A stretch of DNA of 64,000 bases from Bacteroidota bacterium (GTDB lineage Bacteria; Bacteroidota; Bacteroidia; UKL13-3). Below the pieces are notes generated by a model, which was given only the letters and a program-made list of their open reading frames with translations, did not search any database and had not been told where the DNA came from. A program made the position numbers and the translations under genes. Location: positions 336,360-400,359 of the forward strand of contig JBPXJS010000041.1 in NCBI GenBank assembly GCA_051715425.1, given 5' to 3'. How positions within the stretch are numbered: position 1 is the stretch's first letter; every line of letters begins with the position of its first letter. Of the stretch, positions 4,090-26,676 are shown in pieces.

Positions 4090-4836
4090 ATGCTGGAAGT
4101 TTCGGTTAAAGGATTAACATATCACAGGTTTCTGGCAAAAACAGTTGTACCGGAAGATACCCTCCCTCTTAAAAATAAATTCGATTACTCCTTTATCGTA
4201 GCATACGAACACTTTACCGATCCCGATTATCATTGCATAGATAAAAATGCCTGCGTTATTGATCTGAGTATGGGTGCTGAAGCTGCATTTGCAAATTTTA
4301 ATTCAACAAGCAGAAATGAGGTAAGACGCTCGGAAAAAATAAGTGAGCTTACTTTTACAACAGGATATGAAACATTCGGATTTGATACGTTTTTTGAATT
4401 TCACAAAAATTGTGAGCATGACCGTGACTGGTTTCCTGTTCCTCCAGATGAATTAAAAAACAGTCTTCTTTTTTCGGCTTCCTTCAATGGAATGTTGATA
4501 GCAGGAATGAGTTGTTACACACATGAAAATTTTATCCGTGTAGGACGAATTTTTTCAAATAAACGTTCAAAAAAATCCGAAGTACTTACCAATCTCGTAT
4601 ATGGATGTGCCTCCAAAAGGATTGTTTATGAAATCTGTAAATATGGTGCAGCTAACGGATTTTCCCAACTCGATCTTGGAGGGGTTGACCTTAATGATCC
4701 GGCAAAATCAGGCATTTCACAATTTAAGCTTTCCCTTGGATCAAAGGTTATACCGGTAAAACTGGCAAGGTGGTCAAACGATCATTTTAAAACAAATGAA
4801 CACGTAATCAGAGATAATGGATGGGATCTTACCTAA
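4090..4836 (+). CDS. FemAB-family-like (GNAT-fold) acyl or aminoacyl transferase, hypothetical.
   Basis: C-terminal GISQFKLSLGSK resembles the FemAB-family G-x-x-FK-x-x-FG end motif. No other recognisable domain. Confidence 0.35.
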   Translation: MLEVSVKGLTYHRFLAKTVVPEDTLPLKNKFDYSFIVAYEHFTDPDYHCIDKNACVIDLSMGAEAAFANFNSTSRNEVRRSEKISELTFTTGYETFGFDTFFEFHKNCEHDRDWFPVPPDELKNSLLFSASFNGMLIAGMSCYTHENFIRVGRIFSNKRSKKSEVLTNLVYGCASKRIVYEICKYGAANGFSQLDLGGVDLNDPAKSGISQFKLSLGSKVIPVKLARWSNDHFKTNEHVIRDNGWDLT

Positions 4837-4846
4837 TTCAAAAAAC

Positions 4847-9732: not shown

Positions 9733-10428
9733 GTGAATATACTCGCCATTATACCAGCACGCGAAGGTTCCAAAAGAGTACCTAAAAAAAATTTCCGCCC
9801 TTTTGCAGAAAGTACCCTTACAGATATCGCTATTAAACAAGCCTTACAAAGCAAACTTATAAAAACAATTGCAGTAAGCTCAGATAGTAAGGAAGTGCTT
9901 GGTATAGCAAAGAAATATGAGCGAATAATTCCGATGGAGCGTCCGGTTGAATTATCAGATGATCATTCTCCCGCTATTGATTATGTGAGGCATACCTTAG
10001 CGGTACTGGAACAAAACCAGCAATTTGATATGGTTGTGATTCTGCAACCCAGTTCTCCGCTGCGAACAGCCGCTGATATTGATGCTACTATAGATATGCT
10101 GCTAAACCACAAGCATGCTGACTCAGCAGTTAGTGTAGTAAAGGTAAGCCACATGGTGCATCCGGTGAAATTAAAAACGATAAAAGACAATGAGCTCCTT
10201 CCTTTTATTGAAGATGAAAAAGGGCGATTTGCTTCCCAGGATTTACCTGATATTTATGTAAGGAACTGCGCTGTTTATGCAACCTGGCGAAAAGACCTTG
10301 AGACAAGACCTGATGTGATAGGAAAAAAAAGTATTGCCTACGTGATGCCTCCTGAAACATCGGTTGATATAAATGATATGATAGATTTTGAGTTTGCAGA
10401 ATACCTGTATAAAAAACAAATTTCTTGA
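9733..10428 (+). CDS. CMP-nonulosonic acid synthetase (acylneuraminate cytidylyltransferase family; NeuA/LegF/PseF-like).
   Basis: ILAIIPAREGSKRVPKKN and ILQPSSPLR motifs of CTP_transf_3. 231 aa. Confidence 0.8.
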   Translation: MNILAIIPAREGSKRVPKKNFRPFAESTLTDIAIKQALQSKLIKTIAVSSDSKEVLGIAKKYERIIPMERPVELSDDHSPAIDYVRHTLAVLEQNQQFDMVVILQPSSPLRTAADIDATIDMLLNHKHADSAVSVVKVSHMVHPVKLKTIKDNELLPFIEDEKGRFASQDLPDIYVRNCAVYATWRKDLETRPDVIGKKSIAYVMPPETSVDINDMIDFEFAEYLYKKQIS

Positions 10429-11870: not shown

Positions 11871-11874
11871 CCAT

Positions 11875-12885: not shown

Positions 12886-12889
12886 AATA

Positions 12890-14044
12890 ATGAAACCAAT
12901 ACCATACGGAAAACAATACATTAACGAAGACGATCTGAAGGCAGTTACTGAAACGCTTCAATCTGATTTTCTTACCCAGGGACCTGCAATTGCTGAGTTT
13001 GAAAGTGCCTTTGCAACTTACACCGGTGCAAAATATGCTGTTGCATTAAGTAATGGAACGGCAGCTCTTCACCTATGTGCAATGGCATTGGATGTAAATG
13101 AAAAGAGTAATGTAATTACAACCCCAATTACATTTGCTGCATCAGCTAACTGCGTGAGGTACTGCGGTGGCAACGTTTTTTTCGCAGATATTAATCCCAA
13201 TACCTACACCCTTGATATTACAAAAGTCGAAGAACTGATTCTATCAAAACCTAAAGGATTCTTTCAAGGGATAATCCCGGTTGACTTTGCCGGATATGCT
13301 GTGAACCTGGAAGCATTCAGAAATCTGGCTGATAAACACGGCTTATGGATTATTGAAGATGCATGCCACGCCCCAGGAGGGTATTTTACAGATTCATCAG
13401 GTACCGAACAATTCTGCGGAAACGGAACTTATGCCGATATGGCTATTTTCTCCTTTCACCCGGTTAAACATATTGCATGTGGCGAAGGAGGAATGATTAC
13501 TACCAACAACGAAGACCTTTACAAAAAGCTTCTGTTACTGAGAACACATGGCATAACAAAAGATCCCAACCTGTTACACGAAAATCATGGCGCATGGTAT
13601 TATGAAATGCAAACTCTGGGGTATAACTACAGATTAACTGATTTTCAAGCCGCTTTGGGAACTTCACAATTAAAACGGGCGGATCAGGGTCTATTGCGAA
13701 GAAGAGAAATCGCTCAAACATATTTTGATGCTTTTAAAGATTGTGATTTCATAAAAGGACAATCAGGTGCGGTTGAGGGGCATGCCTATCACCTGTATAT
13801 CATTGAAACAGATAGACGAAAAGAATTGTATGATTTCCTGAGAAGCAAGAATATTTTTTGTCAGGTTCATTATATCCCGGTGCACACGCTGCCATACTAC
13901 ACTGAACTTGGACATAAAAAAGGTGATTATTATAATGCCGAACACTATTATAGCCAGTGTTTAAGTTTACCTATGTTTCCAACATTAAGTCATGAAGAAC
14001 AGACATATGTGATTCATCAGATAAAAGACTTTTTCAGTAACTAA
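12890..14044 (+). CDS. pseC: DegT/DnrJ/EryC1-family PLP aminotransferase, PseC-like (UDP-4-amino-4,6-dideoxy-L-AltNAc transaminase).
   Basis: YGKQYINEDDLKAV and FSFHPVKHIACGEGGMITT (PLP lysine region). Start set at MKPIPYG just after the pseB stop (the track ORF starts at 12863). Confidence 0.8.
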   Translation: MKPIPYGKQYINEDDLKAVTETLQSDFLTQGPAIAEFESAFATYTGAKYAVALSNGTAALHLCAMALDVNEKSNVITTPITFAASANCVRYCGGNVFFADINPNTYTLDITKVEELILSKPKGFFQGIIPVDFAGYAVNLEAFRNLADKHGLWIIEDACHAPGGYFTDSSGTEQFCGNGTYADMAIFSFHPVKHIACGEGGMITTNNEDLYKKLLLLRTHGITKDPNLLHENHGAWYYEMQTLGYNYRLTDFQAALGTSQLKRADQGLLRRREIAQTYFDAFKDCDFIKGQSGAVEGHAYHLYIIETDRRKELYDFLRSKNIFCQVHYIPVHTLPYYTELGHKKGDYYNAEHYYSQCLSLPMFPTLSHEEQTYVIHQIKDFFSN

Positions 14045-14087
14045 TCTTTACCCTTAGTTAGTCATTTAACACAACCAAATTATTTCC

Positions 14088-14951
14088 ATGTCTCCATCAG
14101 TCATTCTTGGTACTGTACAATTCGGCCTTCCTTATGGAATAAATAACTCCAGCGGTCAGGTAAGGAATGAAGAAGCAATAAAAGTGCTTTTGCTTGCTGC
14201 TGAACATGGAATAACCACCCTTGATACTGCTGAAGTATATGGAAACGCCCAGAAAATTATTGGCGATTTTCATCAACATCATGCCCAGCGGTTTCTAATT
14301 AATACCAAGTTTAAGGGCACAGAAAACAACACATTACTTGCCGAGTGCAAAAAAAGCCTCGCGGAGTTAAACATTTCACGTATTGAAACTTATTTCTTTC
14401 ATAGCTACCAGGACTATACCAACAAACCTGGCTTACGCTCAGAGCTTAGCGCTCTAAAAGAGCAAGGGCTTATAAGAAAAACCGGTCTTTCCATATATAC
14501 CAACGAGGAATTTGATACTGCCATTAACGACTCATCTATTGATACCATACAACTCCCGTTTAATTTACTTGACAACTATAACAAACGCGGTGCTTTGCTC
14601 AATAAAGCTAAACAATCAGGAAAATGCATTCAGGTAAGATCCGTTTTTCTTCAAGGTTTATTTTTTAAGCCTACAAATGAACTACCAGACTTTTTAATGC
14701 CACTTAAACCCTGGCTCGAAAAACTAAACTCACTTGCCAAAGCATATCAAACCAGCATGGAAACCCTTTGTTTACAATATGCAGCTTCCCAAAACCTGAT
14801 AGATGAGATTATTATAGGCGTTGATTCCTCTGAGCACCTGATAAGAAATCTTGCTTCACTAAACGAAAGATGTAACGAACAATTATTGCAGGAAATCAAT
14901 AACATAAACGTAGAAGAAACTTCCTTACTTTATCCTTTTAACTGGAAATAA
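14088..14951 (+). CDS. Aldo/keto reductase family oxidoreductase.
   Basis: ILGTVQFGLPYG and TLDTAEVYGN are AKR N-terminal motifs. Confidence 0.7.
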   Translation: MSPSVILGTVQFGLPYGINNSSGQVRNEEAIKVLLLAAEHGITTLDTAEVYGNAQKIIGDFHQHHAQRFLINTKFKGTENNTLLAECKKSLAELNISRIETYFFHSYQDYTNKPGLRSELSALKEQGLIRKTGLSIYTNEEFDTAINDSSIDTIQLPFNLLDNYNKRGALLNKAKQSGKCIQVRSVFLQGLFFKPTNELPDFLMPLKPWLEKLNSLAKAYQTSMETLCLQYAASQNLIDEIIIGVDSSEHLIRNLASLNERCNEQLLQEINNINVEETSLLYPFNWK

Positions 14952-14953
14952 CT

Positions 14954-15934
14954 ATGACTACTAAAACATATATTATCGCTGAAATAGCACAGGGTTTTGA
15001 AGGAAATCCCTGGTTATGCAAAAAATTTATTGAACTGGCAAAAAAGTCAGGAGCGGATGCTGTAAAATTTCAAATCTTCAGAGCAAGTGAAGTATGTACA
15101 GAGGACTATGTATACAATGAACTCTTTAATTCACTTGAGATTGACCCAAAAATCTGGACAGAGCTTATCAGCTACAGTAAATCCATAGGAATCGACTTTA
15201 TTTCCGATGTGGTTGGGATAGAAACATATGACTGGATAAGCAAAACAGACATTACCTCTTATAAAATCCATTCCACAGATCTGAAAAATTATCCCCTGCT
15301 AAAACATATTGGCAACAGAAAACACCGCATCTATGTTGGAATAGGTGGAAGTACTGCTGAAGAAATAGCTAAGGCGATAACCTTACTTGGAGATAGTGAC
15401 CTTGTTCTCCTCACAGGTTTTCAGGCAGAACCCAACCTGCTGGTTGATGTGGAACTTGATAAAATAAAGCTGTTGCAAAAAATGTTCAATCTGCCGGTAG
15501 GTTATGCAGACCATATTGATGCAAATGAAGACCTCGCTGTTGTATTGCCTTCAATGGCGGTGCTGGCCGGAGCCTCAACAATTGAGAAACACCTTACCAT
15601 TGACAGAAACAACCTTCAGATTGAAGACTATATTTCGGCTCTCAACTCTGATGAATTTATACGAATGGTTAACCTGATCAGAAACGTTGAGCAGTTTCCT
15701 TCTCAACAGGAATATAAGTTAAGTGACAGGGAAATTGAATACAGAAAAAAATCAAAGCGTGTAATTCTGGCTGCTAAAGATATTCCCGCAGGTCACACCA
15801 TTGATGCAAGTGATATTACCTTGCTGAGAACGGGAACCCCGGCAGAAATTCTAGATATTGATGAGGTAGTTCATAAACAAACCAAACGAGCATTTAAAAA
15901 ACTGGAAGTAATAACCAAAACGGAATTGATATGA
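14954..15934 (+). CDS. Divergent NeuB-family (SpsE-like) PEP-dependent sugar synthase (copy 2).
   Basis: YIIAEIAQGFEGNP, AVKFQIF, YKIHSTD and GYADHID align to NeuB family motifs. The metal-binding region is divergent. 326 aa. Confidence 0.65.
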   Translation: MTTKTYIIAEIAQGFEGNPWLCKKFIELAKKSGADAVKFQIFRASEVCTEDYVYNELFNSLEIDPKIWTELISYSKSIGIDFISDVVGIETYDWISKTDITSYKIHSTDLKNYPLLKHIGNRKHRIYVGIGGSTAEEIAKAITLLGDSDLVLLTGFQAEPNLLVDVELDKIKLLQKMFNLPVGYADHIDANEDLAVVLPSMAVLAGASTIEKHLTIDRNNLQIEDYISALNSDEFIRMVNLIRNVEQFPSQQEYKLSDREIEYRKKSKRVILAAKDIPAGHTIDASDITLLRTGTPAEILDIDEVVHKQTKRAFKKLEVITKTELI

Positions 15935-16668
15935 AATTAATAGCAACACTTGCCTGTAGAAACAATTCTAAGCGTCTTTACGGCAAACCAATGCAATTGC
16001 TGCAAACAAGAACTGTACTCGAGTATATTGTAAAAGGAATTGAAGCCAATGGAGAAGTAGATGAAATTGTGCTTGCTATCAGTTCTAAAACAGGAAACGA
16101 AATTTTTATTGAGGAAGCCAACAGACTTGGGGTAAGATACGTGCTTGGAGATGACAAAGATGTTCTTAAACGTTTAATTGATGCCTGTGAACTCGGAGGA
16201 GGAGATACCATTTATAGGGTAACCACCGAATCACCATTCCCATATATTGAAGGGTTAAAAAAAGCCAAAACTTCTCACGAGGAGCAACATGCAGATTATA
16301 CCACGTATTCCAACCTGCCTGATGGAAGCAGCTTTGAAATAGTAAGCCTGCGTGCTTTAAAAGCTTCTCATGAGCAAGGAGAAGATCGTCACAGGAGTGA
16401 GTTATGTACCTTGTATATGAATGAAAATAAATCCCGGTTTAAGTTCAATATTCTTGAAACACCGGAGGCTCTTCAACGTGCGGATTATCGTTTAACAATT
16501 GATTTTCCTGAAGACCTGATTCTTTGCCGTAAAATCATACTGGGTCTTGGCGGTGATACAAACTATATCCCTTTCGAAAAGATTATTTCTTTTCTTGATG
16601 CTGACCCGGAACTAAGAAAAACCGTAGCCAACCTGACAGATGAATCTTACATAAAATTCTTTCACTAA
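15931..16668 (+). CDS. SpsF-like cytidylyltransferase (CMP-sugar synthetase family, PseF/SpsF subgroup).
   Basis: MKLIATLACRNNSKRLYGKPM N-terminal nucleotide-binding motif. Overlaps the upstream NeuB-family gene by 4 bp. Confidence 0.65.
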   Translation: MKLIATLACRNNSKRLYGKPMQLLQTRTVLEYIVKGIEANGEVDEIVLAISSKTGNEIFIEEANRLGVRYVLGDDKDVLKRLIDACELGGGDTIYRVTTESPFPYIEGLKKAKTSHEEQHADYTTYSNLPDGSSFEIVSLRALKASHEQGEDRHRSELCTLYMNENKSRFKFNILETPEALQRADYRLTIDFPEDLILCRKIILGLGGDTNYIPFEKIISFLDADPELRKTVANLTDESYIKFFH

Positions 16669-18017
16669 TGAGACAAATCAGCAATTTCAGTAAATCTGAA
16701 GAATACCGTAAAAAAATTCACGACCTGATTCCCGGTGGAGGTCATACCTATTCCAAGGGAGACGATCAGTTTCCACAATTATCTCCTGCTGCAATACAAT
16801 ATGGCAAAGGAGCCTATGTATGGGATATTGACGGCAACCAGTACCTTGACTGTTCCATGGGATTAACTTCGGTTAGTCTTGGCCATGCTTATCCTGAAGT
16901 AACTGAGCGCGTAAAAAAGGAACTTGATTTTGGTGTAAACTTTCAACGTCCCTCCTATCTTGAAATGGAAATGGCGGAAAAGTTTCTATCCCTGATTCCG
17001 CAACACGATATGATTAAGTTTGCGAAAAACGGATCTATAGTTACTACAGCAGCAGTGAAACTAGCAAGGGCCCATACAGGAAGAAAACTTGTTGCGTTCC
17101 CCGGAGATCATCCTTTCTATTCATACGATGATTGGTTTATTGGAAAAACGGCATGCAATAAAGGTGTACCTGAAGAAATATCAGCACTCTCTGTAACTTT
17201 TCAGGGATGCAACTTGCAATCACTGAAAGAATTGTTTGAAAAGTATCCGGATCAGATTGCCTGTGTAATAACAGAGCCTGAAAGAAACCAATGCTATTAC
17301 AACTGTGCCTGTGGCGGCCAACCCGGAGCTTTCCTCGAAAAAGCGATAAAACTTTGCCATGAGCATGGGGCTTTATTTATTATTGATGAAATGATCACAG
17401 GATTTAAAACTGCTCTGCCAGGTTCTTTGGTGAAATATAACCTGAAACCGGATATGGCAACATGGGGAAAAGGTATTGCCAATGGCTTTTCCTTTTGCGC
17501 ACTCACTGGAACAAAAGAGGTAATGGAATTGGGTGGCATTCGAAACAAAGGTCAGGAAAAGGTATTTCTTACTTCTACCACACATGGTGGAGAAACACAT
17601 GCTATTGCAGCGGGTATTGCCTCCATAGACGTATTTCAAAAAAACAATGTCATTGCCCACAATCATGAAATCGGTAACTACTTTCTTGCTAAATGCAATG
17701 AAGTTATACAACATCATGAACTGACCAAATATGTACATCTGATGAATTGTAACTGGATGCCTGTATTTATATTCCGAAATTCAAAAGAGGAAATATGTCA
17801 GGGCATGCGTACGCTGGTATTACAGGAAATGATTAAGCGGGGAATCCTGTTTCAGGGAGCCTTTGTTCCCTGCTATTCCCATACAAAAGAAGACGTTGAT
17901 TATTTTGCCGAAGCCCTCGATCAGAGCCTTGTTATTTTCAAGCAAGCCCTTCACAATGGATATGAATCATATCTTACTGGCGAACCTGCAAAAGCTGTTT
18001 TTAGAAAATTATTATAA
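16668..18017 (+). CDS. Class III PLP aminotransferase (glutamate-1-semialdehyde aminomutase-like).
   Basis: GGGHTYSKG, DIDGNQYLDCSMGLTSVSLGH, IIDEMITGFK and MATWGKGIANGFS (PLP Lys) are hallmarks of class III aminotransferases. Confidence 0.75.
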   Translation: MRQISNFSKSEEYRKKIHDLIPGGGHTYSKGDDQFPQLSPAAIQYGKGAYVWDIDGNQYLDCSMGLTSVSLGHAYPEVTERVKKELDFGVNFQRPSYLEMEMAEKFLSLIPQHDMIKFAKNGSIVTTAAVKLARAHTGRKLVAFPGDHPFYSYDDWFIGKTACNKGVPEEISALSVTFQGCNLQSLKELFEKYPDQIACVITEPERNQCYYNCACGGQPGAFLEKAIKLCHEHGALFIIDEMITGFKTALPGSLVKYNLKPDMATWGKGIANGFSFCALTGTKEVMELGGIRNKGQEKVFLTSTTHGGETHAIAAGIASIDVFQKNNVIAHNHEIGNYFLAKCNEVIQHHELTKYVHLMNCNWMPVFIFRNSKEEICQGMRTLVLQEMIKRGILFQGAFVPCYSHTKEDVDYFAEALDQSLVIFKQALHNGYESYLTGEPAKAVFRKLL

Positions 18018-18035
18018 CTACTAAATATAATTATC

Positions 18036-19238
18036 ATGAGCGAATTAAAAAGATGTAAAAAATGTCTCCTTCCTGAGACTCACGAAACGATCATTTTTGA
18101 TGATGACGGAATCTGCAGTGTTTGCAGACAAAATGAATTTAAAAAAGAAAAAATCGACTGGACTTCTAAAAAAGGAGAACTTGATGAACTTATTGCACAG
18201 TATAAAGGAACCGGTGACTACGACTGTATCGTTCCGTTTAGCGGTGGTAAGGACAGTACCTGGACCTTGTATTATCTGATGAAAGAATACAAACTAAAGC
18301 CACTTGTGGTGAGGTTTGACCATGGTTTTCTTCGTCCCAACCTGAATGAAAACACCATTAAGGTATTGAGAAACCTTGGGGCCGATTTCCATTCTTTTAC
18401 CCCAAACTGGAAAGTGGTACAAAGATTAATGTTGCAAAGTTTTCTTGAAAAAGGAGATTTTTGCTGGCATTGTCATACCGGTATTTATTCTTACCCTATG
18501 TGGGTAGCTATCCGATACAATATTCCTTTAATTTTCTGGGGCGAACCATCTTCAGAGTATACTTCATACTATAGTTATGATCAATCTGAAGAGGTTGATG
18601 AAAAAAGATTCAACAGGTATATAAACCTTGGTATTAATGCCCTGGATATGGCTGTAAGAATTGGCGGTGATATAGATGAGCGTGATTTTAAACCATACTC
18701 TTATCCTCCATTAAAGGAGCTGAGAAGAATTGGTTACAGATCAGTTTGTCTTGGTTCCTATATTCCATGGGATGTAAGAACACAATCTGAAATAATAAAC
18801 AAAGAACTTGGCTGGCAGGGCGACCGTGTTGAAAATGTACCGGCTGAATACAGCTATGAGAAAATTGAGTGCTATATGCAGGGTGTGCGCGATTATATCA
18901 AATACATTAAACGAGGATATACCAGACCAACTCACCTTGCTTCAATAGATATCCGCAATGACCGGATGGAGAGAAGCAAAGGCCTGGATCTGATCAATCA
19001 GTTTGAAGGTAAAAAACCACCAAGTTTGGAAATATTCCTTGAGTTGGTTGGTTTAACAGAAGATGAATTTTTTGAGATCGCGAAAAGTCATACCGTTTCT
19101 CCGTGGAAGCTTAATGTATTTGAGCAGGAAATAGGAGAAAAATTACCTGACTTCAGCAAATGGTCGAGAGAAGGACGTGCGCAAAGGGATAAGGCGATGG
19201 AACAAATCGAACATTGGAAAAAATCTTCCGGCTTATAA
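18036..19238 (+). CDS. N-acetyl sugar amidotransferase (PP-loop ATP pyrophosphatase; WbuX/WbpG/LegX-like).
   Basis: N-terminal Cys-rich CKKCLLPET...CSVC motif. PP-loop IVPFSGGKDST. Followed directly by HisH/HisF paralogs. Confidence 0.75.
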   Translation: MSELKRCKKCLLPETHETIIFDDDGICSVCRQNEFKKEKIDWTSKKGELDELIAQYKGTGDYDCIVPFSGGKDSTWTLYYLMKEYKLKPLVVRFDHGFLRPNLNENTIKVLRNLGADFHSFTPNWKVVQRLMLQSFLEKGDFCWHCHTGIYSYPMWVAIRYNIPLIFWGEPSSEYTSYYSYDQSEEVDEKRFNRYINLGINALDMAVRIGGDIDERDFKPYSYPPLKELRRIGYRSVCLGSYIPWDVRTQSEIINKELGWQGDRVENVPAEYSYEKIECYMQGVRDYIKYIKRGYTRPTHLASIDIRNDRMERSKGLDLINQFEGKKPPSLEIFLELVGLTEDEFFEIAKSHTVSPWKLNVFEQEIGEKLPDFSKWSREGRAQRDKAMEQIEHWKKSSGL

Positions 19239-19241
19239 AAT

Positions 19242-19859
19242 ATGATTGGTATCGTAGATTACGGAATGGGTAATCTTTTATCCGTGTACAGCGCATTCGA
19301 TTACCTCGGAGAGGATGTAAAAATATGTCATCATCCGGAGGAACTTCTATCAGTTGATAAGATTGTGATTCCGGGTGTTGGCGCATTTAAAGATTGTATT
19401 GAAAAACTAAACTCCAGTGGTTTTACAGAAGCATTACATGAAAACACAATAACCAAGGCAAAACCTACTATGGGCATTTGTCTCGGGATGCAGGTGATGG
19501 CCAAATCGAGTCTTGAGGGGGGGGAGTATGAAGGTCTTGGATGGTTTGATGCCAGCGTCATTCGCCTCCATCCGGGTGATAAGGATAAAAAGGTACCCAA
19601 TATCGGATGGAATGATATCACTTATAACTCTTCTGTACCTCTGTTTAAGGGGTTACCCCAAAAACCGGATTTTTATCTTGTACATTCTTATTATATGAAA
19701 TGCAACAATCCCGGTCTGGTGGTTGCTTCATATGAATACGGGCATCAGGTAACGGCTGCCGTATTAAAAGATAATATCTTTGCAACACAGTTTCATCCGG
19801 AAAAAAGCCAGGATTACGGATTAAGAATATTAGAAAATTTTATTGACTGGAACCCCTGA
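19242..19859 (+). CDS. HisH-like class I glutamine amidotransferase subunit (WbuY-like).
   Basis: MIGIVDYGMGNLLSV, IVIPGVGAF, GICLGMQ (catalytic Cys) and FHPEKS. Contains a G8 homopolymer at 19517-19524. Confidence 0.85.
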   Translation: MIGIVDYGMGNLLSVYSAFDYLGEDVKICHHPEELLSVDKIVIPGVGAFKDCIEKLNSSGFTEALHENTITKAKPTMGICLGMQVMAKSSLEGGEYEGLGWFDASVIRLHPGDKDKKVPNIGWNDITYNSSVPLFKGLPQKPDFYLVHSYYMKCNNPGLVVASYEYGHQVTAAVLKDNIFATQFHPEKSQDYGLRILENFIDWNP

Positions 19860-19861
19860 TC

Positions 19862-20647
19862 ATGTCAAAAGCCAGATTAATTCCTAAACTTCAGCTTCGC
19901 AGAAGCTCTCAGAATCCATCAAGAATGGTACTGGTGATTACAAAGCAATTTGATACCCCAATTGAAATTGCTGATCCTGTATCGCAAGCCAAAATTTTTC
20001 AGGCACAGGCTGCTGATGAATTAATCTTTATCAATATAGATAAGGAACAAAAGGATATCAATAAATTGGCTGAAATCATTCATAAAGTTTCTGAAGAAAT
20101 ATTTATGCCCATTACAGTGGGCGGAGGAGTTAGCACTGAAGAACATTTCAGGATTCTGCTTGCCAATGGTGCTGATAAAATATCTATTAATACCATTGCA
20201 GTAGAAGATCCTTCTTTCATTACCCGCACCTCAGAAAAATTTGGTGCTCAGTGCGTGGTAGTGAGTATTGACTACCGACAGGAAGCAGATGGAACTTATT
20301 CTGTTTATACAATGGGCGGACAGAAACAAACGAATTTGCATCCTGTTGAATGGGCCATGGAAGCCGAAAGGCTTGGTGCAGGCGAAATTTTATTGTCAAG
20401 CATCGATCATGATGGAATGAGAAACGGGCTAAACCTTGAAGTAACACGAATGGTGGCCGATAAACTTTCCATCCCATTAATCACCTCAGGTGGTTGCGGA
20501 CTTGCACAACATTTTTCCGAAGGATTTCTTAAAGGCAGAGCTGATGCAGTTGCTGCGGGTAACTTCTTTGCTCACAGAGACCAGAATCTGATGCAAACCC
20601 GATCACAAATAAAAAACGCAGGAATTAACATCCGGGTGCATACCTGA
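19862..20647 (+). CDS. HisF-like cyclase/synthase subunit (WbuZ-like).
   Basis: TVGGGVST, ISINT, VVVSIDYR and EILLSSIDHDGM are TIM-barrel HisF motifs. Confidence 0.85.
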   Translation: MSKARLIPKLQLRRSSQNPSRMVLVITKQFDTPIEIADPVSQAKIFQAQAADELIFINIDKEQKDINKLAEIIHKVSEEIFMPITVGGGVSTEEHFRILLANGADKISINTIAVEDPSFITRTSEKFGAQCVVVSIDYRQEADGTYSVYTMGGQKQTNLHPVEWAMEAERLGAGEILLSSIDHDGMRNGLNLEVTRMVADKLSIPLITSGGCGLAQHFSEGFLKGRADAVAAGNFFAHRDQNLMQTRSQIKNAGINIRVHT

Positions 20648-20654
20648 TTACGCA

Positions 20655-21668
20655 TTGAAAAAAATAATACTAAGAGCAGACGGAAATTCTGCAATAGGTT
20701 TGGGTCATGTATATAGGCTGCTTTCCATTGCCAATATAGCCGGAAAAGACTTTGATGTTTGTTTTGTAATAAACAATCCGGAACCTTTTCTTCTTGACCT
20801 GTTAAACATGCATGTGAATAAGGTTATTTCCCTAAATGAAACACATGATTATTCATCACCTTCTATAAAGGATAAAGAAACAGAAATAGCATTTGATATG
20901 GATGGTATTTTAACCGGTGAAGAGATTGTAGTAACAGATGGATACTGGTTTGGAAAACAATATCAGCAGGCTGTAAAAGCAACAGGATGCAAATTGGTTT
21001 GTATAGATGATTTTGCTACCAACCATTTTTACGCAGATGTTGTGATCAATCATGCACCTGGAATACAACCATCACTCTACTCATCAGAACCTTATACAAA
21101 ATTTTGTCTGGGTTTGGATTATGCCATGTTGAGAAATGAATTTTATAGCACGTTTGCTCCGGTTGAAAAACGAGAAAAAGTACTCCTTATCTCAATGGGT
21201 GGAAGCGATGAATTCAAGCTCACTGGAAAATTTCTGCCTTCTATCATCAACAAGGGCGAATTTAAAGCCATTCATATTCTTATCTCTCCCTTATTTGATA
21301 AAGAACACCTGAACCAGATTAATCATTATGTATCCAATCCCAGTCTGAATATAAGATTACATAGCAATCTTACTGCAAAAGATCTTGTACATGTTATGGA
21401 TTCCTGCGCACATGCATTTGTTTCGGCAAGCACTGTTTTATTTGAGGCTTACAGCAGAGGGTTGATTTGTATAACAGGTTATTATACCGGCAACCAACAG
21501 AATATTTACAATGGATTTACCTCTCAAAAACTTGCACATGGTTTGGGTGATCTGAAAACGTTGGAACAAATTTCTTTTCATCATTTAAATGATAGCACAT
21601 TAATCCCTTTGCTTCAACCAATGAAGTCAGATAAAAATCTAAAAAATATTTTCCTTTCTCTATGTTAA
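20655..21668 (+). CDS. pseG: PseG-like UDP-2,4-diacetamido-2,4,6-trideoxy-L-altropyranose hydrolase.
   Basis: N-terminus KKIILRADGNSAIGLGHVYRLLSIA matches the PseG family start. About 337 aa, GT-B-like. Confidence 0.7.
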   Translation: MKKIILRADGNSAIGLGHVYRLLSIANIAGKDFDVCFVINNPEPFLLDLLNMHVNKVISLNETHDYSSPSIKDKETEIAFDMDGILTGEEIVVTDGYWFGKQYQQAVKATGCKLVCIDDFATNHFYADVVINHAPGIQPSLYSSEPYTKFCLGLDYAMLRNEFYSTFAPVEKREKVLLISMGGSDEFKLTGKFLPSIINKGEFKAIHILISPLFDKEHLNQINHYVSNPSLNIRLHSNLTAKDLVHVMDSCAHAFVSASTVLFEAYSRGLICITGYYTGNQQNIYNGFTSQKLAHGLGDLKTLEQISFHHLNDSTLIPLLQPMKSDKNLKNIFLSLC

Positions 21669-22291
21669 TTCAGATATTATGTGATAATCCTTCCTCATGG
21701 ATTATTCCTTATGCAAAAGAACTGGTAAATGAACTGACCTTGTCAGGAAATATTATCCGGCTTATTCATCATAAGGATGAGGTAGTTTCCGGAGATATTC
21801 TCATTATGCTTTCGTGCGAGCACTTATTCAGGAATCTTTCACTTAACAAGTATAATCTGGTTGTGCATGAGAGTGATCTCCCTAAAGGTAAAGGATGGTC
21901 GCCACTAACCTGGCAGGTGCTTGAGGGTAAGGATAAAATTCCGGTAACCCTTATCGAAGCAACGGAAGGAGTTGATGCCGGGCCAATATATGATCAGATA
22001 ACTATTAACCTGAACGGTACTGAGCTTGTTGATGAACTCAGACAGGCACAGGGAGAAGCGACAAAAGAACTGATCAGAAAATTTGTTAAAAATCACCCCA
22101 ACAATACAGCCACACCTCAACAAGGTGAGGAAAGTTTTTATCCAAGAAGAAAACCTGAAGATGGAAAACTTGATATCCATGTCCCTTTAAAAGATCAATT
22201 TAATCTGCTCCGTGTTTCCGATAATGAGCGATACCCTGCATGGTTCGAAATAGATGGTGTTACTTACCAGTTAAAGATCTACAAAAAATAA
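21662..22291 (+). CDS. Formyltransferase-domain protein (short form), putative sugar N-formyltransferase.
   Basis: VVHESDLPKGKGWSPLTWQVLEG and LIEATEGVDAGPIYDQ. Confidence 0.65.
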   Translation: MLIQILCDNPSSWIIPYAKELVNELTLSGNIIRLIHHKDEVVSGDILIMLSCEHLFRNLSLNKYNLVVHESDLPKGKGWSPLTWQVLEGKDKIPVTLIEATEGVDAGPIYDQITINLNGTELVDELRQAQGEATKELIRKFVKNHPNNTATPQQGEESFYPRRKPEDGKLDIHVPLKDQFNLLRVSDNERYPAWFEIDGVTYQLKIYKK

Positions 22292-22319
22292 CGTTTATCA
22301 AATACGTTCTAAACTAACA

Positions 22320-23318
22320 ATGAAAATTATTAATACTTTCAGGCACGCTGATATAGAAATTCAACACGTTCTTATTGACCTTGGTTCAACAACTGAAATG
22401 AATCAATATATGTTGTTGTTTGAGAAATGTTTTGGGAAAAGAGCCAATATTACCGAAGAAACTTTCACGTGGTTTAACCTTGATCAGCCCGGAGCCGAGA
22501 ATTACAACTTTGGATTTATTGATTGCAACAATAACAGCCTGATAGCTGCATACGGACTGTTGCCAATCGATGCTGCGCTTCATGGGAAAAAGGCAAAAGC
22601 TGTTTTATGCACCAATGTAATGACAGACCCCGACTATGCAGGCAAAGGTTTGTTTGTAAAAATAGGTGAAGAATCCATCAGGCATTGTGGAGAACAAGGT
22701 ATTTCTGTTTGCCTTGGCATCCCAAATGAAAATGCCATAAAAGGACATATGAAAGTAGGCTGGACACCGTTTGAAGATATTTCCTACTATGAGATGCTCA
22801 AAACTGATATGTCGGTCTTCCCTGCTGACAGCAGAATTCAGATCAGTGAATCAGACAGTTTCAACGAACGTGATTATATATTTGATGATCTGTTTAATAA
22901 CGACAGCGATTTTCGTTTAACAAGAACCAGCACCTGGCTTAACTGGCGATGCTCAAAGCCTCACAGTACTTACAGAAAGTTTAAGGTTAATGAAAATGGT
23001 TTTGTTGGTTACTTTATTATAAAGGAGTTTTTTGATGCAAAAGAGGCTGTAAAAAAAACACATATTGTTGACCTGGCCTTTAAAAACGAACAGGTTCTGG
23101 AAGCAATTCTAAAATATGCTGTAAATATTGCGGTGCTCAATCAATCAGATATTCTGAACTTATGGGCATTTGATAGTGATGAGCTGATGGCCCGGTCGCT
23201 AATAAACTGTAACTACAAAAAATCGTCTTCAAAAAATTATGTCATTCTTTACCCTATAGGTATTGAAAAACCGATAAAAAAAATAAGATTATCTTTATTT
23301 GACAACGATGTATTCTAA
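22320..23318 (+). CDS. GNAT / FemAB-like acyltransferase, hypothetical (paralog of 42295-43224).
   Basis: TDPDYAGKGLFVKIGEESIRHCGEQGISVCLGIPNENAIKGHMKVGWTP aligns with the paralog segment THPDHRGKGLFVDLAKK...GFEKLGWTF. Confidence 0.4.
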   Translation: MKIINTFRHADIEIQHVLIDLGSTTEMNQYMLLFEKCFGKRANITEETFTWFNLDQPGAENYNFGFIDCNNNSLIAAYGLLPIDAALHGKKAKAVLCTNVMTDPDYAGKGLFVKIGEESIRHCGEQGISVCLGIPNENAIKGHMKVGWTPFEDISYYEMLKTDMSVFPADSRIQISESDSFNERDYIFDDLFNNDSDFRLTRTSTWLNWRCSKPHSTYRKFKVNENGFVGYFIIKEFFDAKEAVKKTHIVDLAFKNEQVLEAILKYAVNIAVLNQSDILNLWAFDSDELMARSLINCNYKKSSSKNYVILYPIGIEKPIKKIRLSLFDNDVF

Positions 23319-23324
23319 GTAATT

Positions 23325-24383
23325 ATGAACAACACATTTGATATTGGTAAATTTAAGGTAGGCGATGGTCAGCCTGTATTTATTATTGCCGAGCTTTCCT
23401 GTAATCACCAGCAGGATTTTGAACTGGCAAGAAAATCCGTTCTGGCTATGAAAGAATGTGGCGTTGATGCCGTGAAGCTTCAAACAGCCAAACCGTCATC
23501 CATTACCATAAAAGCAGATACTGAGTATTTTAAAATAAAGGGAGGTACCTTATGGGACAATAAAACCCTTTACGATCTTTATTCTGAAGTGTATACCCCA
23601 TGGGAATGGCATAAACCCCTTCAGGAGTTGAGTGAAAGTCTGGGTATGACATTCTTCTCTTCTCCCTTTGATCATGAAGCTGTTGATTTTTTAGAACAAC
23701 ATCAGGTTCCTGCATACAAAATTGCATCCTTTGAAATTACGGATATCCCACTTATTAAATATACAGCCGGTAAGGGCAAACCGATTATTATTTCTACCGG
23801 CATTGCAAATGAAGAAGATATAAAAGATGCCGTTGAAGCCTGTCATTCTGTTGGAAACTATCAGATAGCCTTATTAAAATGTACTTCGGCCTACCCAACT
23901 CCACTTGAGGAAGTAAATCTGAATGTAATACCCGAATTGAAAAGAAAATTTAATACAATTATTGGACTTTCAGATCATACACTTGGTAGTCTGGTTCCAA
24001 CCGGGGCCGTAGCACTTGGAGCACGCATTATAGAGAAACATTTTATTTTAGACAGAAAGCTGGGTGGGCCAGATGCCGCCTTTTCTATGGAACCACATGA
24101 ATTTAAGGCGATGATTGATACCGTAAGGGATCTTGAAAAAGCAATGGGCAAAAGTGAAATTATCATTTCCGAAAAAGTTGAAAAAAACAGACAATTTGCA
24201 CGCTCGCTTTTCATCGTAGAAGATGTAAAAAAGGGCGACTTGCTTACACCTGAAAACGTGAGATCAATACGACCAGGATATGGCATAAGACCTAAACATC
24301 TTGAAAATATACTTGGAAAAAGAGTAACCAGAGATATAGAAAAAGGAACCCCATTGGATTTTAATATGATTGACGCATCATGA
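23325..24383 (+). CDS. pseI: Pseudaminic acid synthase PseI (NeuB family, copy 3).
   Basis: Close full-length resemblance to characterised PseI: FIIAELSCNH, VKLQT, FSSPFD, AYKIASFE, LLKCTSAYPTP, GLSDHTLG and a C-terminal SAF domain. Confidence 0.9.
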   Translation: MNNTFDIGKFKVGDGQPVFIIAELSCNHQQDFELARKSVLAMKECGVDAVKLQTAKPSSITIKADTEYFKIKGGTLWDNKTLYDLYSEVYTPWEWHKPLQELSESLGMTFFSSPFDHEAVDFLEQHQVPAYKIASFEITDIPLIKYTAGKGKPIIISTGIANEEDIKDAVEACHSVGNYQIALLKCTSAYPTPLEEVNLNVIPELKRKFNTIIGLSDHTLGSLVPTGAVALGARIIEKHFILDRKLGGPDAAFSMEPHEFKAMIDTVRDLEKAMGKSEIIISEKVEKNRQFARSLFIVEDVKKGDLLTPENVRSIRPGYGIRPKHLENILGKRVTRDIEKGTPLDFNMIDAS

Positions 24384-25093
24384 TGAAAGAACTCTTCCGC
24401 AACAAAAAAATAATGATGGTGGTGGCTCATCCTGACGATGAACTGCTTGGACCAGGAGCTACCATGAACAGGCTAATCAGTGAATTGGGCGTTAAGGCCC
24501 ATGTAGTTATACTTGGGGAAGGCATCACCTCACGCTCAGATACCCGAGATCCCGCACTTTGGGAAAAGGAGCTTGCTATACACCGCAACAATATCATGTC
24601 GGCCCAAAAGGCCATTGGATATCAAAGCGTACAAATTTATGATTTGCCCGATAACAGATTTGACAGTGTAGCATTGCTTGACATTATTAAAGTAGTGGAA
24701 AAGGAAAAAAAAGCCTTTAACCCGGATATTATTTTTACCCACCATGGCGGAGATGTGAATATTGATCATCAAAGAACTTTTGAAGCAGTGATAACTGCCT
24801 GCCGTCCGATGGAACATGAACAAGTTAAAACCATTATCACTTTTGAAACCCCATCCGGTACGGAGTGGAGAGCATCAACAGATCCAAGACACTTTATACC
24901 AAATCTGTATATGGGGGTAACAAAAGAAAACGTAGAGGCCAAAATAAAAGGGATGGAAAGTTATGAATTTGAAAAACGACCTTTCCCTCATCCACGCTCA
25001 CCTGAAGCACTAATGATTCAGGCCCAGAGATGGGGTGTAGCAGCCGGACTGCATTACGCTGAAGCATTCTGTATTGTAAGAAGTATATCCTAA
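24380..25093 (+). CDS. LmbE-like (PIG-L family) N-acetyl-sugar deacetylase.
   Basis: MMVVAHPDDELLGPGATM and IFTHHGGDVNIDHQ are PIG-L/LmbE zinc-site motifs. Confidence 0.75.
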   Translation: MMKELFRNKKIMMVVAHPDDELLGPGATMNRLISELGVKAHVVILGEGITSRSDTRDPALWEKELAIHRNNIMSAQKAIGYQSVQIYDLPDNRFDSVALLDIIKVVEKEKKAFNPDIIFTHHGGDVNIDHQRTFEAVITACRPMEHEQVKTIITFETPSGTEWRASTDPRHFIPNLYMGVTKENVEAKIKGMESYEFEKRPFPHPRSPEALMIQAQRWGVAAGLHYAEAFCIVRSIS

Positions 25094-25103
25094 TTCTAAA
25101 CCC

Positions 25104-25631
25104 ATGAATACAAAAGAATTAAACAAACCCATTTATCTCGAAATTCTTACTGATGCAAATTTTTCTAAGAATTACGTGAACTGGATGAATGATTATGAAA
25201 TCACAAAATACCTGGAAAGCAGGTGGAGAGGTCAAACCATTGACAGTATTAAAGAATACCTCAAATACATGAATGAGAGCCCAAACAATTTTATGTTCGG
25301 CATTTTCCTGTCATCAAACAACCAACATATTGGCAATATTAAAATAGGTAGTATTGACTGGATACACAGAAACGGTGATGTAGGCCTGTTGATTGGCGAA
25401 CGATCCACCTGGGGTAAGGGTTATGCTACTGAAGCCATCAAACAAATTACCCATATAGCTTTCAAAAATCTAAACCTGAACAAACTGCTTGCAGGTATTT
25501 ATGTTGGCAATGAAGGTTCTTACAAAGCATTTATAAAAGCAGGATGGGAGGATGTAGGTCTTCTCAAAAAACATCGCTTCTCTGAGGGGAAATTTGTTGA
25601 CGAATACCTGGTTGAGGTTATTACCAATTAA
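25104..25631 (+). CDS. GNAT-family N-acetyltransferase (RimL-like). Candidate PseH.
   Basis: 175 aa. Acetyl-CoA-binding region ERSTWGKGYATEAIKQI. Located inside the pse gene block. Confidence 0.55.
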   Translation: MNTKELNKPIYLEILTDANFSKNYVNWMNDYEITKYLESRWRGQTIDSIKEYLKYMNESPNNFMFGIFLSSNNQHIGNIKIGSIDWIHRNGDVGLLIGERSTWGKGYATEAIKQITHIAFKNLNLNKLLAGIYVGNEGSYKAFIKAGWEDVGLLKKHRFSEGKFVDEYLVEVITN

Positions 25632-25644
25632 TTCAGGAAATACC

Positions 25645-26676
25645 ATGATCATTGCAAAACCAGATAATATCTTTTTCTTCACCGGCCCTGCGGTATGGAT
25701 ACCCGAAGCCATCAACTATGCATCTGCCAATGGTATTCAGTGCTATGTTTTTGCCGTTACAAGGCATCTGGAGGAAATTGTAGACAGGGAAAACAATATT
25801 ACTTTTAAAGATGTATTGGAAAAGAATCAGATAGCTTATTTCCATTGTGATGATATCAATACGTCTGCCGATTTTAAAAGACTTGCTACTAAAAACAGCA
25901 TTGGTATAGGCTTAGGGGAAGCGTATACTTTTACAACAGAAACGCTTGCACTGGTTGACCGGAAAATCTTTGATATGATGATTATCCGTATGCCAAAATA
26001 CAGAGGCGGTGCTCATTTTACCTGGCAAATTCTGCAACAAAACAGAATTGGAGCATGGTACCTTCAACTGGTTAATGAAGAAATGATTCCAGGTGGTTAC
26101 GATCACGCTGAAATTATAAAAACACACGAATATATTTTGCCTCAATGGGCTCGCACACCAGCCGACTATTTTAAAGTAGCTGATGTAGAAGGACTCAATC
26201 TTTTTAAGGGGTTTCTTAATGATATTGCATCAGGAAAAGATTTTCATCTGACATGGTTACAGGAGAATTTTTCATTATACCTGCCACGCCTGTATACGTT
26301 AAAACATGCCTTTATTGACTGGAGTTGGAGCGGAGAAGAAATAGAACGTTTTATATGTGCCTTTGATGATCCTTATGTTGGCGCCAGCACCTTTTGCAAT
26401 GGTACCAGGGTATTGATAAAAAAAGCCCAGTTTGAACGTGGAGAGGGGGCTTTCCATCCGTTTATTAATGGTATCATTTACCGTATTTTTAACGGAAAAA
26501 TATTTGTGGCAGTAAATAACGGAAGCATCATTATAGAAACAATTCAAACGGAAAGCGGAGAATCATACCTTCCGGAACTGAAACCAGGATACCGGTTATT
26601 TACTCCGCAGAGCAAAATAGAAGAGGCCATGATGTTTAATGCCGAATTTGATTCAAAAGGAATAAAAAATAAGTAA
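25645..26676 (+). CDS. Formyltransferase-domain protein (long form with a C-terminal extension).
   Basis: MIIRMPKYRGGAHFTWQILQ. The C-terminal region is paralogous to that of 4847-5860 (W...ER.ICAFD.PY.GA....N). Start set at MIIAKPD after the upstream stop (the track ORF starts at 25594). Confidence 0.6.
   Translation: MIIAKPDNIFFFTGPAVWIPEAINYASANGIQCYVFAVTRHLEEIVDRENNITFKDVLEKNQIAYFHCDDINTSADFKRLATKNSIGIGLGEAYTFTTETLALVDRKIFDMMIIRMPKYRGGAHFTWQILQQNRIGAWYLQLVNEEMIPGGYDHAEIIKTHEYILPQWARTPADYFKVADVEGLNLFKGFLNDIASGKDFHLTWLQENFSLYLPRLYTLKHAFIDWSWSGEEIERFICAFDDPYVGASTFCNGTRVLIKKAQFERGEGAFHPFINGIIYRIFNGKIFVAVNNGSIIIETIQTESGESYLPELKPGYRLFTPQSKIEEAMMFNAEFDSKGIKNK

Follow-up and report, generated by a model that had tools for sequence, protein, structure and literature searches.

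A WbuXYZ-type gene trio within a pseudaminic acid gene block of a Bacteroidota polysaccharide locus

Described systems and the trio in the window

Two described gene trios closely resemble the one dealt with here. WbuX/WbuY/WbuZ of Escherichia coli O145 (L-FucNAm) match it in their three gene types and in gene order and also lie in a saccharide locus, and AglX/AglY/AglZ of Methanococcus maripaludis are the same trio in an archaeal setting, acting in the N-glycan on a hexuronic acid substrate; with AglXYZ genetically lost, as cited in PMC5420450, a ManNAc-derived sugar no longer has its acetamidino group. Nonulosonic acid counterparts in Campylobacter and Legionella are also pertinent. Campylobacter PseA (Cj1316c) and PtmG (Cj1324), which act on pseudaminic acid (Pse) and legionaminic acid (Leg), belong to the same N-acetyl sugar amidotransferase (NASAT) family, but their genes are not known to have adjacent HisH/HisF partners, PseA being a stand-alone NASAT. 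The two have been named CMP-Pse5Ac7Am and CMP-Leg5Am7Ac acetamidino-synthases (PMC13317340, PMC3766260). Legionella O-antigens are homopolymers of a 5-acetamidino nonulosonic acid, and Legionella ORF28, a PtmG homologue, is said to turn CMP-Leg5Ac7Ac into CMP-Leg5Am7Ac (PMC3766260). In Legionella pneumophila Sg6/Sg12 the LPS locus has genes for CapD, DegT, an aldo-keto reductase, an ‘LPS biosynthesis protein’, HisH2 and HisF4, with an acetyltransferase, a cytidylyltransferase, a GSA-aminomutase and PseG in the same block (PMC3694923). The literature that could be searched yielded no biochemical assay for a WbuXYZ trio.

The DNA analyzed here (the window) is a 64-kb stretch carrying a Bacteroidota-type polysaccharide locus. 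Its trio consists of ORF1, a NASAT of the WbuX/PseA/WbpG family (18036..19238, + strand, 400 aa), ORF2, a HisH-type class-I glutaminase that is the WbuY equivalent (19242..19859, + strand, 205 aa), and ORF3, a HisF-like (beta/alpha)8 barrel of WbuZ type (19862..20647, + strand, 261 aa). The three are co-directional with spacings of 3 bases (ORF1/ORF2) and 2 bases (ORF2/ORF3); 18 bases separate the end of the upstream gene from ORF1, and 7 bases lie between ORF3 and the next gene. The original prediction had placed a PP-loop amidotransferase with HisH- and HisF-like subunits at 18036-20647, and the ORF list gives three + strand ORFs at exactly these positions, with the family assignment borne out by HMM, motif, structure and comparative genomics; the HMM matches are strong, full length and far beyond chance. 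The trio is another example of a known three-gene system and no new kind of system.

As in the window, a Legionella NASAT is accompanied by HisH/HisF paralogues, there in an O-antigen locus for nonulosonic acid, and the Sg6/Sg12 block shares with the window CapD, DegT, aldo-keto reductase, cytidylyltransferase, GSA-aminomutase-like and PseG genes. However, descriptions of the Legionella sugars make them legionaminic-type, and it is Pse equivalog models that the window genes pass. The context also differs from that of E. coli O145, being one of pseudaminic acid and not FucNAc; comparison of the trio DNA with all complete E. coli genomes, seeking O145 wbuXYZ, gave no match.

The three proteins

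ORF1 scores 342.9 bits (E 2.5e-102) against the NCBIfam WbuX model TIGR03573, the cutoff of which is 203.2, with its residues 5-349 aligning to profile positions 2-343 of 344. A Pfam search with ORF1 gave no match, and no PseA-specific model was among the NCBIfam or Pfam matches. Its PP-loop, S69-G-G-K-D-S74, conforms to SGGxDS, and its tetracysteine motif, C7xxC10...G25xC27xxC30, to the zinc-binding pattern CxxC...[GN]xCxxC (the SGGxDS motif definition and NASAT family features being from PMC10607449). In 81/81 orthologues both motifs are invariant (S, G71, D and S of the PP-loop and all four Cys), except for G70F in 10. The sequence matches that of LpNASAT (PDB 8WEX) with E 3.5e-28, which is also the top structural match (TM 0.71-0.75, E about 1e-19) of an AF2 model of ORF1 with mean pLDDT 78.6; the structural matches that follow are the PP-loop enzymes AsnB, GMP synthetase, LarE, TtuA and NMN synthetase. 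The modeled fold is that of a NASAT, a Rossmann-like PP-loop core in a basin-shaped protein. There are differences from LpNASAT, which has 468 aa: identity in the structure-based alignment is only 22%, and its N-terminal extension and ~15-residue insert between the CxxC pairs are both absent from ORF1. ORF1 is very probably a PP-loop ATP pyrophosphatase, the member of the trio predicted to do the chemistry.

ORF2 is far above the cutoff of the NCBIfam HisH model TIGR01855 (227.2 bits; cutoff 105.4), has a Pfam GATase match and matches the sequences of PDB HisH structures with E about 1e-33. The Cys-His-Glu triad C80/H185/E187 is intact and, within the orthologue set, invariant in 73-74 of 74. 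The NCBIfam/Pfam libraries searched have no separate WbuY model, and it is the context that shows this glutaminase to serve the amidotransferase and not histidine synthesis; it is the presumed source of ammonia for the trio.

The position of ORF3 is less straightforward. It has a Pfam His_biosynth match and resembles Thermotoga maritima HisF with E 1e-53, yet it is a divergent subgroup member in that each of the HisF-like models scores it under the curated cutoff: 272.6 bits against a cutoff of 299.7 for its best NCBIfam match, TIGR03572 WbuZ, 242.2 against 294.55 for hisF, and 211.6 against 310 for NF038364 AglZ/HisF2. Its closest representatives (P0121, P0124, P0178 and P0212) behave in the same way, with WbuZ best but under cutoff. 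The suggested comparison with the WbuX and WbuZ families thus came out well for ORF1, which passes its model, and only in part for ORF3, for which WbuZ scores highest without the threshold being reached. As expected of a WbuZ, the gene adjoins those for a HisH homologue and a NASAT, and the locus is a saccharide one.

In HisF, D11 is the general acid and D130 the general base (PMC11350729). With numbering by a T. maritima HisF reference (it agrees with PDB alignments from residue 22 on and with the residue numbers of PMC11350729), Asp11 is Gln in ORF3 and is absent from all 69 orthologues, position 11 being Gln (62) or Leu (8) across 70/70 sequences. Among 50%-identity representatives, those with Asp at this position pass the hisF model, and for those with Leu or Gln the best-scoring model is WbuZ. 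By contrast with the lost acid, R5, E46, K99, E167, D98 and D130 are invariant in 70/70 HisF-like sequences, as are the Gly-rich loops and G81/G82, G202/G203, D176 and G177. The first four residues would correspond to the HisF ammonia gate, and the Gly-rich loops are at the positions of the HisF phosphate-binding sites. HisF D98 contacts HisH (PMC8115485). A further departure is in loop1, which has 17-18 residues across the ORF3 subgroup against 10 in HisF (that of ORF3 is 7 longer than in T. maritima HisF); the subgroup's loop1, 7-8 residues longer, is also a point of difference from the E. coli O145 trio and the TIGR03573/TIGR03572 families. ORF3 is presumed to be an ammonia conduit and glutaminase partner, and not a cyclase.

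The Pse block and related loci

The view that the trio lies inside a Pse block proved correct, with flanking PseB, PseC, PseG and PseI all above equivalog cutoffs. On the upstream side, and all on the + strand, are a PseF-like CMP-nonulosonate synthetase (9733..10428; TIGR03584, 138 bits, short of its cutoff, 205.7), PseB (11875-12885; TIGR03589, 506 bits vs cutoff 408), PseC (12863 or 12890 to 14044; TIGR03588, 467 bits vs cutoff 424), an aldo-keto reductase (14088-14951), an extra NeuB-like gene (14954-15934), an SpsF-like cytidylyltransferase (15931-16668) and a class-III aminotransferase, PRK06209 (16668-18017). Downstream, again on the + strand, follow PseG (20655-21668; 164 bits vs cutoff 154), a formyltransferase-like gene (21662-22291), a GNAT (22320-23318), PseI (23325-24383; 481 bits vs cutoff 340), a PIG-L deacetylase (24380-25093) and a PseH-like GNAT (25104-25631). 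Three NeuB-family synthases are encoded in the window as a whole, of which the one at 1916-2938 is accompanied by a NeuC-like epimerase; numerous further amino-sugar enzymes are present, as are two GFO/WbpB-like oxidoreductases and a second DegT. A NusG/UpxY-like gene is at the start of the locus. A promoter/terminator scan of 11000-27000 gave counts no higher than in shuffled sequence, with a sigma-70 model that is probably wrong for Bacteroidota.

Comparison was with 80 related genome loci from many phyla, trio order being scored in 72 and flanks in 50 full-flank loci, with Pse orthologues in the flanks counted at >= 40% identity and absence judged within 10 kb. The WbuX clade has 67-84% identity across Bacteroidota, Verrucomicrobiota, Planctomycetota, Ignavibacteria, Nitrospirota, Cyanobacteria, Desulfobacterota and Proteobacteria, the nearest loci being in Bacteroidia metagenome-assembled genomes (84% identity). 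Cultured bacteria in which the module occurs include Aquirufa beregesia (L018), Aquirufa ecclesiirivi (L020) and Rhodocytophaga aerolata (L034). The original prediction spoke of a known three-gene signature, and the order WbuX, HisH, HisF is indeed contiguous in 66/72 loci. The partner genes are not always co-located, since five loci (L050, L051, L056, L058 and L067) have a WbuX orthologue without hisH/hisF downstream.

Association with Pse genes is frequent. In the full-flank loci, PseI is near the trio in 42/50, PseB beside it in 35/50 and PseC in 36/50; all three are present in 33/50 and at least one in 44/50, leaving 6/50 with no Pse gene within 10 kb. A PseH-like GNAT is nearby in 39/50. 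The aldo-keto reductase, SpsF-like cytidylyltransferase and class-III aminotransferase are likewise conserved beside the trio, with the aminotransferase in 44/50 and the aldo-keto reductase in 36/50. Cytidylyltransferase and aminotransferase occur as a fusion in L005, L031 and L070, and a cytidylyltransferase-reductase fusion has been reported in a Vibrio; because of these fusions, the reductase, cytidylyltransferase and aminotransferase may be a functional unit. Orthologues of the other synthases are scarce, those of the NeuB gene at 1916-2938 and of NeuC being in only 2 loci and those of the NeuB-like gene at 14954-15934 in 2/50.

Proposed chemistry, alternatives and meaning

The trio is most probably (a probability of about 0.72) a glutamine-dependent acetamidino-forming system of WbuXYZ/AglXYZ type, whose substrate would most likely be a Pse-type nonulosonic acid. 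In the scheme envisaged, the HisH-like glutaminase would hydrolyze glutamine, and the ammonia would travel through the HisF-like barrel, whose putative gate and HisH interface are kept though the cyclase acid Asp11 is lost, to arrive at the PP-loop enzyme. There the carbonyl oxygen of the sugar N-acetyl group would be activated with ATP, yielding AMP and PPi, a reaction of the kind known from GMP synthetase and NAD synthetase, and ammonia would displace the activated oxygen to give sugar-NH-C(=NH)CH3. The Pse-type substrate would come from the surrounding PseB/C/H/G/I genes, the nitrogen modified being N5 or N7, and action is probably at the free or CMP-activated stage, by analogy with literature proposals for PseA and PtmG. 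The product would enter the Wzx/Wzy polysaccharide encoded by the locus. An acetamidino-nonulosonic acid had been suggested at the outset, and the co-location of the WbuX clade with PseB/PseC/PseI in most related loci, together with the Legionella cases in the literature, favors it; CMP-Pse5Am7Gra occurs in the nucleotide-sugar pool of another member of the Bacteroidota, Tannerella forsythia (PMC5420450). The mass spectrometric sign offered with that suggestion, a +41.03 Da shift relative to acetyl, was mis-stated: going from acetamido to acetamidino, with NH in place of O, shifts the mass by -0.984 Da, +41.03 Da being the acetimidoyl increment on a free amine, as against +42.01 for acetyl.

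That the trio puts the acetamidino group on another N-acetyl sugar is unlikely, candidates being a hexosamine or diamino-uronic acid (as in the L-FucNAm of E. coli O145 or the ManNAc3NAmA of P. aeruginosa O5 and Methanococcus) or what one of the other two NeuB-like synthases makes, a nonulosonic acid. Characterized relatives act on hexosamine derivatives (PMC10607449), the window has two further NeuB-family genes with the NeuC-like epimerase, oxidoreductases and second DegT noted above, and a minority of full-flank loci lack nearby Pse genes. However, the WbuX clade travels with PseB/PseC/PseI and not with the other synthases, and no FnlABC or WbpADEI set is above cutoff within the window. Distinctly unlikely, though compatible with the main explanation, is a HisF-like protein that is more than a passive conduit, joining in catalysis or activating the glutaminase in a substrate-gated way, with the extended loop1 as a lid or docking element; it might bind the nucleotide-sugar, since both Gly-rich loops and Asp130 are kept. 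The invariance of these positions, with D176 and the long loop1, is in line with this, as is the behavior of HisF, whose loop1 shuts on the ligand, the binding of which activates HisH (PMC11350729, PMC8115485), but the conserved positions may merely reflect barrel stability and in five loci the NASAT stands without HisH/HisF neighbors.

It is very improbable that the AsnB-like amidotransferase of the window (37310-39163) makes the acetamidino group, with the trio doing something else. Carboxylates are the groups that AsnB-type enzymes amidate, and the uronamide in the glycan of T. forsythia would explain the AsnB gene of that organism. An AsnB (Tanf_01265) has been suggested for the 5-Am group of T. 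forsythia Pse5Am7Gra (PMC6120980) and the window does have such a gene, but matches to it are in only 7/80 loci at 28-32% identity, and the NASAT family is genetically linked to acetamidino formation in several organisms (PMC10607449). That the HisH/HisF pair is a housekeeping imidazole glycerol phosphate synthase, in a polysaccharide locus by chance, is effectively refuted by Asp11 loss, score and context, and its dismissal in the original prediction stands. The resemblance is real, given the ORF2 score above the HisH equivalog cutoff, the closeness of ORF3 to T. maritima HisF and the retention of the glutaminase triad, Asp98, the putative four-residue gate, the barrel and Asp130; unlike that enzyme, however, the pair has lost the catalytic Asp11, has a remodeled loop1, falls short of the hisF model with ORF3, is tied to the PP-loop enzyme in most loci and has no his operon around it (among ~60 window ORFs scanned, none besides the trio is a his gene, as had been claimed).

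Returning to the acetamidino-forming system, a tentative extension is that the trio is part of a conserved cross-phylum cassette of PseB, PseC, GNAT, aldo-keto reductase, SpsF-like cytidylyltransferase, PRK06209 class-III aminotransferase, WbuX, HisH, HisF, PseG and PseI. Its amidino-nonulosonic acid might be unlike plain Pse5Am7Ac/Pse5Ac7Am, e.g. in carrying one more amino group or in having a changed stereochemistry, and in Legionella pneumophila Sg6/12, which has the cassette too, it may be the O-antigen sugar; this is possible, with the odds against it. A literature search found no paper linking pseudaminic acid, GSA-aminomutase and amidotransferase.

The locus adds no new principle; the very conserved WbuX clade is a regular part of a Pse module that is widespread. 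What is less ordinary is that the trio has an aldo-keto reductase, an SpsF-like cytidylyltransferase and a class-III aminotransferase as conserved partners. Of practical use is a sequence marker, Asp11 to Gln/Leu together with a long loop1, that separates ORF3-type paralogues from true HisF and would prevent their misannotation as histidine biosynthesis genes. An acetamidino group places a positive charge on an otherwise acidic nonulosonic acid, and such groups serve as key epitopes in recognition by antibodies and by the receptor-binding proteins of phages, examples being Campylobacter flagella and Legionella O-antigen.

Protein families of the trio

The genes of a putative acetamidino-sugar trio within a Pse block, as had been predicted originally, are borne out by three plus-strand ORFs and their NCBIfam matches at window positions 18036-20647. 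ORF1 (18036-19238, 400 aa) matches TIGR03573, 'N-acetyl sugar amidotransferase' (NASAT), at 342.9 bits (cutoff 203.2); ORF2 (19242-19859, 205 aa) matches TIGR01855, HisH, at 227.2 bits (cutoff 105.4); and ORF3 (19862-20647, 261 aa) matches three HisF-like models, each below its cutoff, namely WbuZ (272.6, cutoff 299.7), hisF (242.2, cutoff 294.55) and AglZ/HisF2 (211.6, cutoff 310). Three bases separate ORF1 from ORF2 and two separate ORF2 from ORF3, with 18 from the end of the preceding aminotransferase gene to ORF1 and 7 from ORF3 to the start of PseG. Pfam matches in the trio are GATase and His_biosynth, the Pfam scan finding no model for ORF1.

ORF1 has the PP-loop (S69-GGKDS-74) and zinc-binding cysteine motif (C7xxC10...G25xC27xxC30) that are the two defining features of the NASAT family (PMC10607449). 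Its sole close solved relative is the Legionella pneumophila member, LpNASAT (PDB 8WEX, E 3.5e-28), which is also the top Foldseek match (E 1e-19, TM 0.71-0.75) of its AlphaFold2 model (mean pLDDT 78.6), followed by other PP-loop ATP pyrophosphatases: AsnB, GMP synthetase, LarE, TtuA and NMN synthetase. An N-terminal extension and a ~15-residue insert between the Cys pairs, both specific to LpNASAT, are absent from ORF1. Since each sequence and fold feature of the family is present, ORF1 is, on sequence and modelled structure, a NASAT. A protein search yields 5988 relatives, the best at 74-84% identity. All 81 orthologues share the four cysteines and the PP-loop residues, save for G70F in 10. 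In those ten the loop reads SFGKDS instead of SGGKDS, and such a replacement of its first glycine is unusual. ORF2 carries the HisH triad C80/H185/E187, invariant in the orthologue alignment, and is identified as a HisH-family glutaminase with the predicted role of WbuY.

ORF3 aligns to T. maritima HisF from its residue 29 (HisF residue 22) through the end (E 1e-53), with loop1 longer by 7 residues and a first strand of R5-L-I-P-K-L-Q11-L versus R5-I-I-A-C-L-D11-V. (Residues 1-21 of the HisF reference are consistent with the numbering of K19, G20, T21, N22, F23 and E24 in PMC11350729.) The HisF cyclase reaction uses D11 as general acid and D130 as general base (PMC11350729); since D11 is Q11 in ORF3, ORF3, on this alignment, cannot be a normal cyclase. 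Among 70 sequences in the orthologue alignment position 11 is Gln in 62, Leu in 8 and Asp in none. What is presumably the ammonia gate of HisF (R5, E46, K99, E167) is kept in ORF3. Also kept are D130, the Gly-rich loops and D98, which in HisF contacts HisH (PMC8115485). A full-library search with ORF3, comparing position 11 and loop1 among 50%-identity representatives, finds that those with Asp, whose loop1 is 10 residues long, score above the hisF cutoff (363 and 381 bits), and that those with Leu, Gln, Ile or Thr have WbuZ as best-scoring model. In the subgroup of ORF3 itself loop1 mostly runs to 16-18 residues, and the scores lie below the WbuZ cutoff. Because of the failed equivalog cutoff and this long-loop1 subgroup, ORF3 is termed WbuZ-like, probably working as WbuZ does, and membership of WbuZ is not claimed.

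Conserved neighbours in relatives

When each species is represented by one genome, a scan gives 80 loci with a WbuX orthologue at 67-84% identity to ORF1, in Bacteroidota, Verrucomicrobiota, Planctomycetota, Ignavibacteria/Kapaibacteria, Nitrospirota, Cyanobacteria, Desulfobacterota and Proteobacteria, the nearest being a Bacteroidia metagenome-assembled genome. When these are compared by tblastn with the proteins of the window, WbuX, HisH and HisF are contiguous in 66 of the 72 loci with enough downstream sequence. In L050, L051, L056, L058 and L067 (Kapaibacterium, Ignavibacteria), tblastn detects no hisH or hisF downstream of the WbuX orthologue, and thus the glutaminase and barrel pair is sometimes not beside WbuX. 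This fits the idea, linked to the TIGR03572 family, that WbuY and WbuZ may not be needed where ammonium is plentiful. One locus, L064, has besides the orthologue a distantly related WbuX paralogue (33% identity) at ~18012, some 7 kb downstream, a pairing that recalls Campylobacter PseA/PtmG.

Fifty loci extend 8 kb or more in each direction. At 40% identity or more, PseI is found in 42 of these, PseC in 36 and PseB in 35; 33 loci have all three, and 44 have one or more. An aldo-keto reductase (36/50), an SpsF-like cytidylyltransferase (31/50) and a class-III aminotransferase (44/50) are nearly as faithful neighbours as the Pse genes, and a PseH-like GNAT is present in 39. In the window that GNAT, a formyltransferase-C-like protein and a DUF4910/M28 aminopeptidase-like protein (25104-27962) form a set recurring near the trio in L002, L003, L005, L014, L018, L031, L041, L070, L075 and L077. 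The last of the three is in 11 of the 50 loci, and a 'putative aminopeptidase' is also among the Legionella Sg12 locus genes (PMC3694923).

Organization of the 64-kb locus

One polysaccharide locus of ~60 co-directional genes, unusually large for its type, takes up the entire window. A NusG/UpxY-like gene (687-1193) comes first, then NeuB and a NeuC-like epimerase (1916-4088). The stretch from there to a PseF-like gene (9733) and Wzx (10425) holds formyltransferase-like genes, deacetylases, a 2-hydroxyacid dehydrogenase and two GFO-type oxidoreductases. PseB, PseC, the aldo-keto reductase, a second NeuB-like gene, the SpsF-like cytidylyltransferase and a PRK06209 aminotransferase lead up to the trio, and PseG, a formyltransferase-like gene, a GNAT, PseI, a PIG-L deacetylase and the PseH-like GNAT come after it. 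Further on are another formyltransferase-like gene, the DUF4910/M28 protein, an MBOAT, an AsnB-like glutamine amidotransferase (37310-39163), glycosyltransferases, Wzy (45820), a carbamoyltransferase, DegT and, near the end, an initiating transferase (62645-63232). Apart from the HisH/HisF-like pair of the trio, no histidine biosynthesis gene is found in the 64 kb.

With three NeuB-family synthase genes, the locus may yield more than one nonulosonic acid. That at 1916-2938 is paired with the epimerase, that at 14954-15934 is below both NeuB and PseI cutoffs and is common to L002 and L079 only, and that at 23325-24383 is a bona fide PseI. The five formyltransferase-like genes (4817-5860, 21662-22291, 25594-26676, 49028-49825, 57620-58372) are accompanied by two polysaccharide deacetylases, the PIG-L deacetylase, a MaoC-SDR fusion and the carbamoyltransferase, a gene content that points to extensive changes in the N-acyl groups of the sugars.

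Predicted amidination and its sugar

The trio is of the known WbuXYZ/AglXYZ type, and its best-supported reading is the scheme long proposed for WbuXYZ. The glutaminase would produce ammonia, the HisF-like barrel would convey it and activate the glutaminase, and the PP-loop enzyme would adenylate a sugar N-acetyl group at its amide oxygen, where ammonia would displace AMP to give the amidine. The mass criterion offered originally, +41.03 Da relative to acetyl, is wrong: replacing amide O by NH gives -0.984 Da, and +41.03 Da is the increment of acetimidoyl on a free amine. The Campylobacter residues have masses of 316 Da and 315 Da. Cleavage of ATP to AMP plus PPi is an inference in the LpNASAT structure paper as well (PMC10607449).

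A Pse-type sugar is the most likely substrate, because of the genomic association with Pse genes, the Legionella trio loci and the gene block of L. pneumophila Sg6/12, which, as in the window, includes a reductase, a cytidylyltransferase, a GSA-aminomutase-like gene and PseG (PMC3694923). The Pse context is already exemplified by Campylobacter PseA and the Legionella loci. Trio-bearing Legionella loci make 5-acetamidino nonulosonic acid O-antigens, and their NASAT, ORF28, is a PtmG homologue described as converting CMP-Leg5Ac7Ac to CMP-Leg5Am7Ac (PMC3766260). In Tannerella forsythia, also of the Bacteroidota, fully modified CMP-Pse5Am7Gra is in the nucleotide-sugar pool (PMC5420450), and therefore amidination there precedes transfer. 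Its acetamidino step has been speculatively assigned to an AsnB homologue (PMC6120980); the AsnB-like protein of the window is more likely a uronamide-forming enzyme. The formyltransferase-like proteins and PIG-L deacetylase could remodel either N-acyl group.

Also pertinent are the cytidylyltransferase and aminotransferase genes directly upstream of WbuX, separate and overlapping in the window (15931-18017) and fused as proteins of 674-695 aa in L005 (7904-9991, with an aminotransferase half scoring 540 bits on PRK06209), L031 (4927-6951) and L070 (7949-9991). In a Vibrio Pse cluster the cytidylyltransferase is instead fused to an aldo-keto reductase, and the sugar of that cluster has MS/MS behaviour unlike Pse5Ac7Ac (PMC7371886). 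Reductase, cytidylyltransferase and aminotransferase look like a single functional unit, and with it the product of the cassette may differ from plain acetamidino-Pse.
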